64,000 nt of DNA from an uncultured delta proteobacterium (GTDB lineage: Bacteria > Myxococcota_A > Polyangia > Polyangiales > B10-G4), in assembly GCA_963727445.1 (NCBI GenBank), contig CAVSGI010000006.1, positions 352,001-416,000 of the forward strand. Direction: 5' to 3'. Shown here in pieces: positions 52,817 through 57,384 of this stretch. The position numbers were made by a program, and so were the translations under genes. The notes under the pieces are model-generated. The model worked only from the letters and a program-made list of their open reading frames with translations. It was not told the DNA's origin and did not search any database. Every line of letters begins with the position of its first letter. Position 1 is the stretch's first letter.

Positions 52817-52958
52817 GCATCGGGCGGCGCCCGATGCTGGGGAACGGGAGCGGGAACGGGAACGGGCACGTGGCTGTAGCCGTGCATGGCGGAGCGGACG
52901 GCAGTCCGCGGAGCTGCACGGGTACAGGCTCGTCGACGCATCGGGCGCAGCCCGATGC
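52817..52958. repeat. Two copies of a 21-bp REP-like palindrome
   Basis: GCATCGGGC-GGC-GCCCGATGC (52817-52837) and GCATCGGGC-GCA-GCCCGATGC (52938-52958). Confidence 0.85.
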
Positions 52959-52963
52959 TAGTC

Positions 52964-53188
52964 AACGGGAGCGTGAACGGGAGCGGGAGGGGGAACGGGA
53001 ACGGGAGCGTGAACGTGAACGGGAACGTGAACGTGAACGGGAGCGGGAACGGGAACGGGAGCGGGAACGGGAGCGTGAGCGTGAACGGGAGCGTGAACGT
53101 GAATGGGAACGTGAACGTGAACGTGAACGGGAGGGGGAACGGGAACGGGAGCGGGAACGGGAACGTGAACGGGAGCGGGGATGGGAGT
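52964..53188 (+). repeat. Hexamer simple-sequence tract G(G/T)GA(A/G)C, ~37 units (plus a short patch at 52840-52870)
   Basis: Mixed GGGAAC/GGGAGC/GTGAAC/GTGAGC units read directly. Confidence 0.95.
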
Positions 53189-53213
53189 GCGCGGCTCGGT
53201 GGGTCGTCTGATC

Positions 53214-53282
53214 GTGTTTCTTGGTCATCGCTGAGACCCCTTCTGGGTTGGGAAAGGGGTCTCAGCGATGACCAAGAAACAC
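53214..53282 (+). promoter_or_regulatory. Perfect 29-bp inverted repeat covering the RBS and start codon of four-helix-bundle gene 1
   Basis: GTGTTTCTTGGTCATCGCTGAGACCCCTT (53214-53242), 11-nt loop, AAGGGGTCTCAGCGATGACCAAGAAACAC (53254-53282). Confidence 0.85.
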
Positions 53283-53609
53283 TCTGATTCGATGATTCAT
53301 CACGACTTGCGTGTCTGGCAGCGGGCGCGAGCCCTCGTGCAGCTCGTGTATGCGAACCTGCCGGCCGATGCGGAGCTTCGGTCGCAGGTGAAGCGGGCTT
53401 CGACTTCGGTCGGGGCGAACATCGCCGAGGGTTGCACGCAGAGCTCGCGGGCGATGCGGCGCAAGCACTACGAGATTGCCCGCGGTTCGGCCGTGGAGAC
53501 CGTGGCGTGCTTCGAGTTGGCGGAGGCGACGGGGGATCGGCTACCGGTCGAGGAAGTCCGCAGCCACGGGGCGGCGATCGCCGCGATGCTCACCAGGATG
53601 CTGCGGTGA
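53268..53609 (+). CDS. Four helix bundle protein (23S rRNA-IVP / Avd-like, TIGR02436-type)
   Basis: DLRVWQRA...LRSQVKRASTSVGANIAEG...IARGSAVET family signature. Confidence 0.9.
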   Translation: MTKKHSDSMIHHDLRVWQRARALVQLVYANLPADAELRSQVKRASTSVGANIAEGCTQSSRAMRRKHYEIARGSAVETVACFELAEATGDRLPVEEVRSHGAAIAAMLTRMLR

Positions 53610-53611
53610 AG

Positions 53612-53650
53612 CACTCTGAGCCCGGAGGGGTTTCCCTCCGGGCTCGGGTG
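53612..53650. terminator. Hairpin filling the gap between the convergent four-helix-bundle genes
   Basis: GAGCCCGGAGGG-GTTT-CCCTCCGGGCTC (53618-53645), extendable with G-U pairs; no U-tract. Confidence 0.6.
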
Positions 53651-53652
53651 GC

Positions 53653-53979
53653 TCAGCGATGGATCATGCGAAAGAGGGTGGCGGCGGCATGATCGAAATG
53701 GTCCTCGGCGGCGTTGCACTCCGCCGCGCTCAGATAGCCCCAGGCCACGGCGATGCGCAGCGCCTGTCTGGCTTCTCTCGCTGAGTTCATCGCGACCGAG
53801 AGCCGCTCGGGCCGATGCCCTTTTCGCCCCCACTCGCCCTCGGCCGCGTTGAGCGCCGCCGAGCTGGCGGCGCGCCGCAGCTGCGACGCGAGGTCGCGGT
53901 CTTCGTGTTGGATCCTTTCGGCCAGTGGCCGGGTGGCCTCGATGGCTTCGAGGAGGATGTCGTGTACCAGCTTGCTCAT
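53653..53979 (-). CDS. Four helix bundle protein (second, divergent subfamily)
   Basis: DRDLASQLRRAASSAALNAAEG...AMNSAREARQALRIAVAWGYL; AAGGAG 9 nt upstream of the ATG. Confidence 0.9.
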   Translation of the reverse strand: MSKLVHDILLEAIEATRPLAERIQHEDRDLASQLRRAASSAALNAAEGEWGRKGHRPERLSVAMNSAREARQALRIAVAWGYLSAAECNAAEDHFDHAAATLFRMIHR

Positions 53980-53984
53980 GAGGG

Positions 53985-54055
53985 GTTGCTCCTTCCGCCC
54001 ACGTCAGGGGCTTCGCCCCGCCCGAAGGGCCCCTGACGTGGGCGGAAGGAGCAAC
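53985..54055 (-). promoter_or_regulatory. Perfect 27-bp inverted repeat sequestering the Shine-Dalgarno of four-helix-bundle gene 2
   Basis: GTTGCTCCTTCCGCCCACGTCAGGGGC (53985-54011), 17-nt loop, GCCCCTGACGTGGGCGGAAGGAGCAAC (54029-54055). Confidence 0.85.
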
Positions 54056-54060
54056 GCCGG

Positions 54061-54408
54061 GCGTTGGCCGCAACCTCGCGACTTGCGACCGCCTGGCGGT
54101 CACGACTGCGGGCGTTGGCCGCAACGTCGGGACTTGCGACCGCCTGGCGGTCACGACGGCGGGCGTTGGCCGCAACGTCGGGACTTGCGACCGCCTGGCG
54201 GTCACAACGGCGGGCGTTGAGCGCAACGTCGGGACTTGCGACCGCCTGGCGGTCACAACGGCGGGCGTTGGCCGCAACGTCGGGACTTGCGACCGCCTGG
54301 CGGTCACAACGGCGGGCGTTGAGCGCAACGTAGGGACTTGCGACCGCATGGCGGTCACAACGGCGCGCGTTGACCGCAACGTAGGGACTTGCGACCGCAT
54401 GGCGGTCA
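54061..54408. repeat. Tandem array of 7 x 51 bp units, each with two hairpins
   Basis: Units start at 54061, 54112, 54163, 54214, 54265, 54316, 54367. Consensus GCGTTG-GCCG-CAACG-TCGGGAC-TTGCGACCGC-CTG-GCGGTCACAA-CGGCGG. Confidence 0.97.
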
Positions 54409-54505
54409 ACTAACTCCGATGGGAATGATCCCGCTCCCGTTCTCTGTCCCCACTCACCCACCCATTCCCAGTCCCAGACCCAAGCGCAGCATGGGGTCGA
54501 GACGA

Positions 54506-54734
54506 CGGGAACGGGAATGGGAGCCGGAGCGCGAACGGGAACGGGAACGGGAGCGGGAACGTGAGCGTGAGCGTGAAGGGAACGGGAACGGGAACGGGAA
54601 CGTGAGCGTGAGCGTGAGACGGGAACGTGAACGCGAACGGGAATGGGAACGGGAACGGGAACGGGAACGGGAGCTGAGCGGGAACGTGAACGGGAGCGGG
54701 AGCGGGAGCGGGAATGGGAGCGGGAACGGGAGCG
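54506..54734 (+). repeat. Second G(G/T)GA(A/G)C hexamer tract, ~38 units, abutting the cheA stop codon
   Basis: Same unit set and same orientation as 52964-53188. Confidence 0.95.
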
Positions 54735-57384
54735 TCAGCTGTCGGTTTCGCCTCGTCTGGCTAGCTCGCGGCTGATGGCTTTGAGCACTTCCGTGGCGTC
54801 GGCGGGCTTGGTGAGGTAGGCGTCGACGCCTGCGTCGAAGCCGCGGATGCGGTCGATGCGGTCCTCCTTCGAGGTGACCATCACGATGGGGACGTCGCGG
54901 TAGGCCGGCATCGCGCGAAGGCGGCGGGTCAGCTCGTAGCCGTCCATGGTGGGCATCACCACATCGGTGGACACCAGGTCGAATCGCTCGTGGGCGGCGG
55001 CGGCGAGGCCTTCGGCGCCGTTGTGGGCGACCACCACGCGGTAGCCGGCCTCGGTGAGGATCCGGCGCAGCGCTTCGCGCACCGTGTCCGAGTCCTCCAC
55101 CACCAGGATCGCGGGCGCACCCTCTCGTTCGGTGACGGCCGCCTGGGCACCGCGCGAGGGGCCGACCCCGCGGATCGCCATCGCGACCAGGGTGGGAACG
55201 TCGAGGATCAGCACGCAGCGCTCGCCCACCAGCGTCGCCCCCGCCGCCCCCGGCACGCGGGTGAGCAGCGAGCCGAGGGATTTGATCACGATCTCCTGGC
55301 GCCCGATGAAGCCGTCGCAGGCGAGGCCGTAGCGGTGGCCGGCGATGTCCACCAGCACCACCGGCAGCTCTTCGGTCATGCGCCCGCTCGCGCCGCCGGC
55401 GCCGATCACCTCCGCGAGGCGGATCAGCGGGATCTCTTCGCCGCCGTCGTGAAGGAGCTCGCGATCCGTCGTCATGCGAACCCGCGATGGCGGCGCGGCG
55501 ACGGTGCGCTCCACCAGGTCGAGGGGCACGGCGTAGACCTGACCCGAGACGCGGAGGAGCAGGACCTGGACGATGGCCAGAGTGAGGGGGAGGCGGATCT
55601 CGAAGCTGCTCCCGGCGCCGAGCTCCGACTCCACCGCGACCGTACCCTTGAGCCGCCCGATGGTGTCGCGCACCACGTCCATGCCGACGCCGCGACCCGA
55701 GAGATCGCTGACCCGCCCGGCGGTGCTGAAGCCCGGCCGGAAGATCAGGTCGAAGACCTCGTCGTCGGCGAGGCCCTCGGCCTCTGCGCGTGCGAGGAGC
55801 CCGTTCTCGATCGCCTTGGCGCGCACCTTCGCCACGTCGATGCCGCCGCCGTCATCGGCGATGCGGATCACGATCTGGTTGCCGCGATGGGAGGCCGAGA
55901 GCGTCATCGAGCCCTCCGCGCTCTTGCCGCGCGCTTCGCGCACGTCGGGGAGCTCGATCCCGTGGTCGATGGCGTTTCGCACGAGGTGCAGGAGCGGATC
56001 GTCGAGCTGCTCGACGAGCACCTTGTCGAGCTCGGTCTCGCCACCTTCGAGGTCGAGGCGCACCTGCTTGCCGAGCTTGAGCGCGATCTCCCGCACCGTG
56101 CGGTGGTACTTGGACCAGCTGCGACCGATGGGCACCATCCGCAGCTTCATCACCTGATCGCGGAGCTCGCCGGCCACGAAGTCAATCTGCTGGCTCGCCG
56201 CGTCGAGGTCGCCGCTCAGCTGCTCGAAGGCGCGGTGGATCCGGCCGAGCTCGGTGGAGATCCCTTGAGAGCGCACCGCGCTGGTGCGCACCCGCGCGCC
56301 GTTCGGCGGCGCCGCGCCTCCGCGCTTGCGCTCGGTCCGCGCGCTGCGCCTCTGATCGTCGAGCTCGCGCGCCACCGAGCCGAGCCCACCGAGCCCCACC
56401 GTCAGCCGGCCTTTGGCAATCACCAGCTCGCCCACCAGGTTCATCAGGAGGTCGAGCTTCTCGAAGTCGATGCGGAGCGTCTGATGGCGAACGTTGGTCT
56501 TGCGCTCCGCCCCGGCGGTGGGCTTGGGGGCGGGCGCCGCACCCCGCGCCGCGATCGCACCCGCAGACTCGGGCACGCCCGTGAGCTTGGCGAGGGCGGG
56601 GCCGATGTCCACGTCGATGTCGCCCCGCGCTGCCGCCGCGTGCACGATGGCGGTGAGGGCGTCGAGGGAGCCGAGGAGCGCGTCGATCACCGCCTGATCC
56701 GCGCGCCGGCGTCCCTCGCGGACGTGGCCGACCAGAATCCTCGGCCGCGTGGGCGAGGCGGGTCATCCGTTTGAGGCCCACGAAGGCGCTCGACCCTTTG
56801 AGGGTGTGCAGGTCGCGGAAGATCGCGGCGACGAGCTCGCTGTCGTCGGGCGCGCGCTCCAGCTCCACCAGGCGCTCGCTCAGCCCTTCGAGGCGCTCCT
56901 GACACTCCTCGAGGAAGGGGTCGATCATGTCGGCGTCGACGGTGGGCTGCCAGGTGCCGTCGTCCTCGTCGTGCGCGGCGTGGGCGGCGCCGCCGCTCGG
57001 ACCGTGCACTGCCTCGGGCGGCGGGAGCCCGGCGCGAAGCGCCTCGGCTGCCTCGGCAATCCTCTCGGCGTCGAGGCGGGCGCCGCTCTCGTCGGGCCGC
57101 GCGAGGTCGGCGAAGGCGTCGACCAACGCGTCGGCGGCGCTCTCGAGATGCTCGCGGAGCTCGTCGCTGGGCGGCCGTGGGCCGAGCTGCTCGACGCGCG
57201 CTCGGATCGCCCCGGCGAGCGCCGCGACCTCCGGCACCCCCACCACGTGGGCGTCGAGCTCCACCGCGGTGAGCGCTTCGAGGAGCGCGTCGACGTTGCC
57301 ACCCTCGCCGCCGAGGATCTCCCGGATGCGGTTCGCGAGGTCCGTGCCTTCGGCGACGAAGGCGGTGAAGGCATCGCTGTTCAC
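54735..57384 (-). CDS. cheA: Hybrid CheA histidine kinase (Hpt-like x2, dimerisation, HATPase, CheW, REC); frameshift near 56737
   Basis: IFRDLHTLKGSS; extra T in GAG GAT T CTG; LDLLMNLVGEL, LHLVRNAIDHGIE, GFSTA..SGRGVGMDVV, LPLTLAI; REC ILVVEDS...TDVVMP...YLTKP. Confidence 0.92.

Follow-up and report, generated by a model that had tools for sequence, protein, structure and literature searches.

Long perfect hairpins at the ribosome-binding regions of two convergent four-helix-bundle genes in a multi-copy cassette of a myxobacterial genome

The window analysed in this study is a 64-kb stretch (C6:352001-416000) of a 27-contig, 9.47-Mb myxobacterial genome; positions given without a contig refer to this window. 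It contains two small convergent genes for four-helix-bundle proteins, each of which carries a long perfect hairpin at its ribosome-binding region. Gene 1 (53268-53609, plus strand) encodes 113 amino acids and has a second conserved ATG at 53292; gene 2 (53653-53979, minus strand) encodes 108 amino acids. Both products match the PF05635 profile (gene 1, 8.1e-21 and 74.7 bits; gene 2, 6.3e-11 and 42.9 bits; cut-off 33.8 bits) and TIGR02436 (70 and 47.2 bits, respectively; cut-off 24), and a match to the PDB entry 2gsc (XCC0516) was obtained at 1.3e-5. A PADLOC scan of four proteins gave no match. The two genes meet at a GC-rich hairpin of 12 Watson-Crick pairs and a 4-nt loop (53618-53645; z = -5.5 and -5.6 on the two strands), which is probably a bidirectional terminator. 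Two further reading frames were considered and rejected: a translated upstream open reading frame (ORF) running through the adjacent repeat array (52886-53287), which is a mechanical frame without conservation, and a mirrored minus-strand start (52962-53228), the frame of which is not preserved between copies.

Hairpin 1 is formed by the arms 53214-53242 and 53254-53282 on the plus strand, which are 100% complementary over 29 bp and enclose a loop of 11 nt. According to folding and inverted-repeat search, its 3' arm holds the Shine-Dalgarno (SD) sequence AAGGGG (53254-53259), the ATG at 53268 and five codons of gene 1, so that the 5' arm is at the same time an anti-SD and an anti-start sequence. 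Folded as RNA in the sense of the gene, it reaches -71.3 kcal/mol (z = -11.9; none of 200 shuffled sequences was equal). Hairpin 2 belongs to the minus strand and has a perfect stem of 27 bp (30 nt at 97% in the inverted-repeat listing). Its arm adjacent to gene 2 (53985-54011), which is the 3' arm in the mRNA sense, includes AAGGAG (CTCCTT at 53989-53994 on the plus strand) and stops 5 nt short of the ATG of gene 2 (53977-53979, minus strand), while the distal or 5' arm lies at 54029-54055. The loop of 17 nt contributes four extra pairs, and the RNA fold in gene sense has -72.4 kcal/mol (z = -7.0; again 0/200 shuffles equal). Relative to the start codon, the 3' arm thus covers positions -14 to +14 in gene 1 and -32 to -6 in gene 2, as read from the sequences. 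With DNA folding parameters both hairpins gave z = -10 to -12 on either strand. They are the sole long inverted repeats among the seven in the window; the remaining five have 18-22 nt at 84-94%, and four of these are self-overlapping palindromes. The first-pass annotation of this DNA had described two mismatch-free stems of 29 and 27 bp, the former burying AAGGGG, the ATG and five codons and the latter AAGGAG, and both were recovered exactly as described. It had also held that the stems are unrelated and the proteins divergent; indeed, no similarity between the stem sequences was seen, and the proteins are only 34% identical over 56 residues (E = 0.034).

Both hairpins are parts of a module with the order hexamer array, hairpin 1, gene 1, central hairpin, gene 2 on the opposite strand, hairpin 2, and further repeats with another array. 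The genome has five copies of this module, which are diverged and located at unrelated loci: the copy on C6 studied here, one on C27 (95% identical), two on C14 and one on C25 (81-85% identical). Hexamer arrays flank all five. Three old lineages can be distinguished (C6/C27, C14b and C25), between which the synonymous divergence dS is 0.5-1.4. The ratio of nonsynonymous to synonymous divergence (dN/dS) between copies is 0.03-0.08 for gene 1 and 0.08-0.15 for gene 2, which corresponds to strong purifying selection. Since the genes are under purifying selection, we conclude from the sequence comparison that both proteins are made and needed.

The conservation of hairpin 1 goes far beyond that of its surroundings. 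None of its 58 stem positions is substituted in any pair of copies, the 5' arm being invariant in all five, while the loop differs at 1-5 of 11 positions between diverged copies and the synonymous sites neighbouring the stem are near saturation (dS 0.67-1.43). In the three lineages, only 39 of 104 four-fold degenerate sites have stayed unchanged; at this rate, the neutral chance of finding 58 sites all invariant is about 2e-25. The sole change in stem 1 is the loss of one A from the 3' arm in two of the five gene 1 copies. It puts the ATG of the stem out of frame, and the frame then ends in a TGA that overlaps the second ATG (53292). This second ATG is conserved in every copy, while the ATG in the stem has the only good SD sequence. 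Because the loss of the A shifts the frame to a TGA overlapping the conserved ATG, the most plausible reading is that the ATG in the stem serves ribosome entry in all copies and is not always the first codon of the protein. Hairpin 2 shows a different pattern. Three substitutions between the lineages are fully compensated, and one further base pair arose by insertion on both arms; a single mismatch is present in each of C14b and C25, in both cases C·A in the gene 2 mRNA. The central hairpin has one compensated change, in the copy C14a. This copy is decaying: its gene 1 is frameshifted and its hairpin 2 is precisely deleted. Altogether, the stem architecture is maintained by selection.

A profile search detected 16 four-helix-bundle genes in the genome, 14 of them intact, which comprise the gene 1 and gene 2 types and two additional families, here called families 2 and 3. 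In family 3 (three copies) a perfect stem of 24-28 bp has a 3' arm made up of the ATG and up to nine codons (0 to +27 relative to the start), and a G-run serving as SD lies in the 7-nt loop. In family 2 (three copies) the SD sequence is paired by the 15-bp closing stem of a structured leader of 150 nt (-128.6 kcal/mol, z = -5.3). The 3' arm thus lies over the footprint of the ribosome in each of the four families. By our reading, the ribosome-binding region or the start is therefore held in a long stem in 15 of the 16 genes, which belong to four unrelated sequence families; the lone exception is the copy with the deleted hairpin. A scan of the whole genome for perfect inverted repeats, with a minimum length of 18 bp and a loop of 3-40 nt, gave 64. 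Of these, 48 fall into two families similar to REPINs (hairpin-forming elements of repetitive extragenic palindromic, REP, sequences), 12 are at starts of four-helix-bundle genes and 4 are elsewhere. Apart from the REPIN-like repeats, 12 of 16 are thus located at such starts. The hairpin sequences occur only together with their gene, in five, four and three copies.

Several other repeats were noted during these scans. A 6-base microsatellite array adjoins all 16 four-helix-bundle genes. Arrays with a period of 6 (60-400 bp) account for 79 of the 120 short-period arrays of the genome, and only about 20 of the 79 are near four-helix-bundle genes; examples of period-6 arrays are at C10:46495, C14:205507 and C21:713982. 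The REPIN-like elements (for example C2:139295-139389 and C9:30229-30322) are approximately 90-100 bp long, with perfect terminal inverted repeats of 26-32 bp and a variable centre of 17-40 nt. The genome encodes four genes resembling HUH/Y1 transposases, of the type of REP-associated tyrosine transposases (RAYT). One such gene (C9:168805-169035, minus strand) is bracketed by two short-period arrays (C9:167923-169574) and resembles the four-helix-bundle genes in this respect. A perfect 24-bp hairpin at C12:61834-61894 separates a response-regulator-like gene, the TAG stop codon of which is part of the stem, from the start of a histidine-kinase-like gene. Finally, C8:16823-17700 is an A+T-rich stretch with a Firmicutes-style terminator hairpin in a genome of otherwise approximately 70% G+C, and it may be foreign DNA or contamination.

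Genes of the PF05635 family are present in 22 of the 41 genomes of the order, this one counted, often in multiple copies, as convergent pairs and at contig ends. From the relatives, 100 stretches with 124 located genes were collected, 94 of which had a full upstream window. We asked for a perfect stem whose 3' arm lies over positions -15 to +10 of the start and used positions in the same loci as controls; only perfect Watson-Crick stems were counted, start codons of the relatives were picked by a simple SD/ATG rule, and neither copies within a genome nor genomes within the order are independent in these counts. Perfect start-overlapping stems of at least 12 bp were found at 42 of 94 genes versus 54 of 1796 control positions, and stems of at least 18 bp at 23 of 94 versus 5 of 1796. 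Of the 18 relative genomes represented, nine carry one or more of these stems. We rely on counts of perfect stems because thermodynamic pairing does not discriminate in such G+C-rich DNA: the mean pairing probability of the start region with an upstream partner was 0.54 for 93 genes versus 0.44 for 250 control positions. Stems of different families have unrelated sequences. A sister species, whose protein is 71% identical to that of gene 1 (locus L133), has a 28-bp hairpin of different sequence which holds SD and ATG. The recurrence of the architecture independently of sequence, proposed in the first-pass annotation, is supported by four families here and by no fewer than nine related genomes.

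In four relative genomes, family-3-like genes have a two-tier leader, in which an outer stem pairs the ATG and the first codons, followed by a conserved inner hairpin and a G-run. Seven of the 16 pairs of the inner hairpin (loci L079-L083 of genome G031, L078 of G023, L042-L046 of G010 and L105 of G018) are changed on both sides and none on one side only. The G-run after it, directly 5' of the start codon, varies in length from 5 to 13 between copies and looks slippage-prone. Convergent pairs of two different four-helix-bundle paralogues recur in G009, G023, G031, G022 and G001, and their products may cooperate.

A second geometry, in which the stem encloses the gene, was observed in the order for 6 of 113 genes, with stems of up to 34 bp. 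In distant phyla it takes the place of the local hairpin. A search with the gene 1 protein supplied a distant set, its 80 best loci, which includes the sister locus L133; most of them belong to Acidobacteriota, Gemmatimonadota, Chloroflexota and candidate phyla, with 31-56% identity. Local 5' hairpins are rare in this set (2/80). Instead, start and stop regions are joined by a perfect stem of at least 12 bp in 19 of 78 loci, a count that falls to 0-1 of 78 when the anchors are shifted. Arrays of 7-8-base repeats on both sides of the gene make up the arms of these enclosing stems (19-31 of 78 loci). At our locus, in contrast, the arrays are not the arms, and unique-sequence hairpins are placed on the ribosome-binding site. 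The common denominator of the 5'-local and the enclosing geometry is that the start region lies inside a long, near-perfect duplex. Among 31 enclosing stems of the distant phyla there were 5 sense G·U pairs against 2 A·C mismatches, numbers too small to reveal an asymmetry.

The repeats around the module in the window are as follows. A spacer element of approximately 100 nt with its own small hairpin (52857-52963), recognized by BLAST comparison of the C6 and C27 copies, lies just before the main array; this locus has one such element and the C27 copy has three (C27:289146-289390 and 291180-291270), between hexamer arrays. The left array (52964-53187), in sense orientation upstream of gene 1, consists of approximately 36 units of the GGGAAC/GTGAAC/GGGAGC type (period 6 and 36 copies in Tandem Repeats Finder). 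On the other side, repeat search revealed a 51-bp tandem repeat with an internal palindrome in seven copies (54052-54408) and the right hexamer array (54505-54731), which has the same orientation as the left one. Between them there is a short degenerate hexamer array in inverted orientation (54429-54480), detected as an inverted-repeat pair. The right array abuts the stop codon of a CheA-like gene (54735-56690, minus strand), and the module is located between a small unannotated gene and this CheA-like kinase gene. An Rfam scan detected no rRNA at the locus, and across 11 loci it gave only sub-threshold look-alikes of microRNA hairpins. Among the module copies, the 51-bp repeat is found only in C6 and C27; its family is also arrayed at more than ten other places of the genome (C4, C6:74000, C8, C10, C12, C20 and others) with 71-84% identity. 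The counterpart of 54429-54480 in the C25 copy is a 108-nt run of CCCACT units beyond gene 2 (C25:76638-76745), inverted with respect to the left array. Hence inverted arrays surround the C25 copy too, in the manner of the classic intervening sequence (IVS) of rRNA. By our reading, four of the six positions of the CCCACT unit are complementary to GGGAAC, whereas the remaining two can form G·U pairs only in a minus-strand transcript.

How could these hairpins act? Tentatively, and at a little less than an even chance, we favour the reading that they are IVS-type RNA stems which were moved to the 5' side of the gene, where they block ribosome entry and offer a site for RNase III, while their arms are kept perfect at the DNA level. 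They would be cis-elements of a multi-copy, IVS-type four-helix-bundle cassette, with the stem placed 5' of the gene and not around it, and with the ribosome-binding region itself as the 3' arm. In a transcript containing both arms, the stem (-70 kcal/mol) would form as soon as the 3' arm is made, so that the 30S subunit would be denied access to SD and AUG and translation would be off. The perfect duplex of 27-29 bp could serve, by analogy, as a substrate of RNase III, and cleavage would free the cassette RNA from the upstream host transcript. As in the rRNA IVS, subsequent loss of the short 5'-arm fragment could expose the start region. That the stems are long enough for RNase III, as the first-pass annotation had pointed out, agrees with the length of the IVS stem of Coxiella burnetii, which is 28 bp and is cut by this enzyme (PMC4990558); the genome studied here has one RNase III gene. 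The RNA-level function would select for presence and position of the stem, and a DNA-level process, for example template switching between the palindrome arms, probably keeps the arms perfectly Watson-Crick. The latter is proposed because paired changes occur without G·U intermediates. From the conclusion that the proteins are made and needed it follows that such a lock must be leaky or conditionally opened.

The position of the cassettes fits with a transcript that comes from outside. Upstream of the first four-helix-bundle gene there is a co-oriented gene at 10 of 11 loci and a divergent one at none, and the arrays start 2-260 nt beyond the stop codon of this co-oriented gene. A scan for promoters and terminators yielded no sigma-70-like promoter and one unrelated terminator-like site. 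A promoter inside the loop, another way of activation suggested in the first-pass annotation, is implausible: loops of 11 and 17 nt (7-17 nt over the families) are too short to hold one, and the scan found none. In the relatives, with flanks of only about 600 nt and with several 'divergent' calls being open frames through repeat arrays, the upstream gene was co-oriented in 15 cases and divergent in 15, with no call in 60 (12/12/65 with stricter rules). The idea that tight silencing suits a toxic product received no support either, since the copies are under purifying selection and expression of an IVS homologue did not impair the growth of E. coli (PMC4990558). That unrelated sequences give the same design here and in the relatives suggests a selfish gene cassette which keeps its own translation off by default.

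Several observations weigh against the RNA lock. First, there are hardly any G·U pairs: the mismatches counted over 35 distinct hairpins are 2 sense G·U, 7 sense A·C and 12 others, so they are not biased to the sense strand, which pure RNA-level selection does not predict. The inner leader hairpin with its seven doubly changed and no one-sided pairs, and the two mismatches of stem 2, both C·A in the gene 2 mRNA, point in the same direction. Second, stem 1 is invariant in sequence and not just in pairing, which points to sequence-specific recognition. Third, gene 2 has a co-oriented flanking host gene in only two of the five copies, and read-through therefore cannot be the general source of its transcript. 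Fourth, a mid-stem cut by RNase III in family 3 would fall inside the coding sequence, so processing cannot be what activates these genes. Fifth, the most copy-rich relatives, G022 (17 genes scored) and G035 (16), have no perfect start-overlapping stem of at least 12 bp (best 0 and 10 bp); their leader hairpins are long and imperfect, and their start regions are not unusually paired. The check by folding of homologues, which was recommended in the first-pass annotation, gave a divided answer: perfect stems over the start are present in 42 of 94 genes, while the genes of G022 and G035 are without such a lock.

The main rival to this combined RNA and DNA account lets the hairpins act at the DNA level alone, in spreading the cassette; we regard it as possible although unlikely. 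The palindromes, extruded as cruciforms or single-strand hairpins, would serve as ends or recognition sites, and the overlap with the starts would merely reflect compactness. The near absence of G·U in perfectly Watson-Crick arms and the compensated insertion of a base pair on both arms speak for it. The hairpins are at the two outer ends of the module, of which five diverged copies exist at unrelated loci, and the sister genome offers two orthologous sites without arrays and module: there, the orthologues of the two flanking genes have neither array nor module after the stop codon, with synteny differing on the other side. The precise loss of hairpin 2 in the decayed copy is the fate expected of an unstable palindrome, and the four HUH/Y1-type transposase-like genes together with the 48 REPIN-like perfect inverted repeats indicate that hairpin-based DNA mobility exists in this genome. 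On the other hand, there is no recombinase in or beside the modules, the hairpin sequences were never found without the gene, and the long stem of single-gene cassettes is only on the 5' side. Moreover, by our reading at least ten sequence-unrelated families end the 3' arm between -4 and +27 of the start, for which a boundary element has no reason.

The invariance of stem 1 leads to another explanation, in which the hairpin is a sequence-specific binding site of a protein, possibly the pentameric four-helix-bundle protein itself, and mediates autoregulation at the mRNA or at the gene. In addition to the 58 unsubstituted positions, set against a variable loop and nearly saturated synonymous sites, the sister species differs in both protein (71% identity) and hairpin sequence, and the Avd relatives from diversity-generating retroelements (DGR) bind nucleic acid and polymerase. 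We consider this improbable, however, given that stem 2 tolerates paired changes of its sequence and that perfect palindromes of 27-29 bp far exceed the usual length of an operator. Quite improbable, too, is a service to the host neighbours, with the hairpins stopping transcription or protecting the 3' end of the upstream mRNA and the occlusion of the start as a side effect. The stems are very stable, the arrays follow closely on the co-oriented upstream stop codon at 10 of 11 loci, and the modules of C6 and C25 sit between convergent host genes; yet there is no T-run after either stem, and the terminator scan gave only the one unrelated site. Stems that end transcription would also silence the genes behind them, which are under purifying selection, and an insulator has no reason to take in SD and ATG. 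Neutral inverted duplications generated by template switching during replication are highly improbable, for although fold-back copying yields perfect arms and short loops, the hairpins persist across copies with near-saturated synonymous sites and recur, always at the start, in four unrelated families here and in nine related genomes, so that the conservation data already disfavour this by-product reading.

If the RNA lock with DNA-level arm maintenance is extended to other phyla, it is tempting to speculate that four-helix-bundle and IVS cassettes form an undescribed, cross-phylum class of recombinase-less mobile elements. Their copy-corrected palindromes would be both DNA ends and an RNase III-gated RNA lock, the protein would recognize its own hairpin, and the IVS and the 5' lock would be two geometries of one mechanism. 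We consider this whole construction distinctly unlikely; were it true, the lock would keep the cargo gene silent in read-through transcripts of the host. Independently of it, the locus is important for several reasons. Genes of the PF05635/TIGR02436 type are annotated in very many bacterial genomes with unknown function, and the rRNA IVS is their only described context. Here they are under strong purifying selection in multi-copy cassettes, with the ribosome-binding site in a perfect duplex of the length of an RNase III substrate across unrelated sequences. In this way a vague "hypothetical protein" becomes a testable system, in which one can ask how a locked gene is translated, who reads the hairpin and how a cassette without recombinase spreads. 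Last but not least, the scarcity of G·U pairs offers a clean opportunity to distinguish RNA-level selection from palindrome maintenance at the DNA level.

Among known systems, the cassettes resemble mRNAs whose ribosome-binding site lies in a long stem and is freed by RNase III or other processing, and integrons, whose attC hairpins damp cassette translation. They share with both a stable stem over SD or AUG and, as proposed here, a default-off translation that needs processing or unwinding. To our knowledge, the stems of those systems contain imperfections and many G·U pairs, are either a feature of single genes or recombination sites of known enzymes, and do not recur throughout a family with unrelated sequences. 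Avd of DGRs belongs to a family of homologous four-helix-bundle fold, and the review PMC10053308 makes reference to PF05635; unlike there, neither a reverse transcriptase nor template and variable repeats are near our genes. A DGR Avd role is excluded for them, because no reverse transcriptase is nearby: the single RVT_1 match of the whole genome is on contig C1, and none is near any of the 16 four-helix-bundle genes. In contrast to REP/REPIN-RAYT systems, the hairpins are not dispersed alone, and the REPIN-like families of this genome have unrelated sequences.

Closest is the rRNA IVS. In the helix-45 IVS of the C. burnetii 23S rRNA, RNase III cuts the stem in its middle and thereby removes the SD region, and tandem heptamers precede the start codon (PMC4990558). 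The two systems have in common the S23p/PF05635 family, a near-perfect stem of approximately 28 bp with the SD region in it, the behaviour of a selfish element and short tandem repeats before the start, which are heptamers there and hexamers here (52964-53187). The differences are equally clear. Our module lies between protein-coding genes and not in a 23S rRNA helix, it has two convergent genes, and its stem is a local hairpin with both arms 5' of each gene, so that the ORF is not enclosed; instead of enclosing arms there is only a weak inverted hexamer array beyond gene 2. The Coxiella ORF is decaying and apparently untranslated, whereas the ORFs here are under strong purifying selection. 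Apart from this, PF05635-type genes appear in the searched papers in just two settings: wedged as odd inserts inside cas operons (PMC3936711) and within rRNA insertions of candidate phyla (PMC11270868). Our literature search retrieved no description of hairpin-locked cassettes outside rRNA or of a 5'-local start lock. In summary, the protein family, the rRNA IVS and its excision by RNase III are already known, and what this locus adds is the 5'-local start lock made of unique sequence, its generality in one order, the quantitative evidence for selection and the deficit of G·U pairs.

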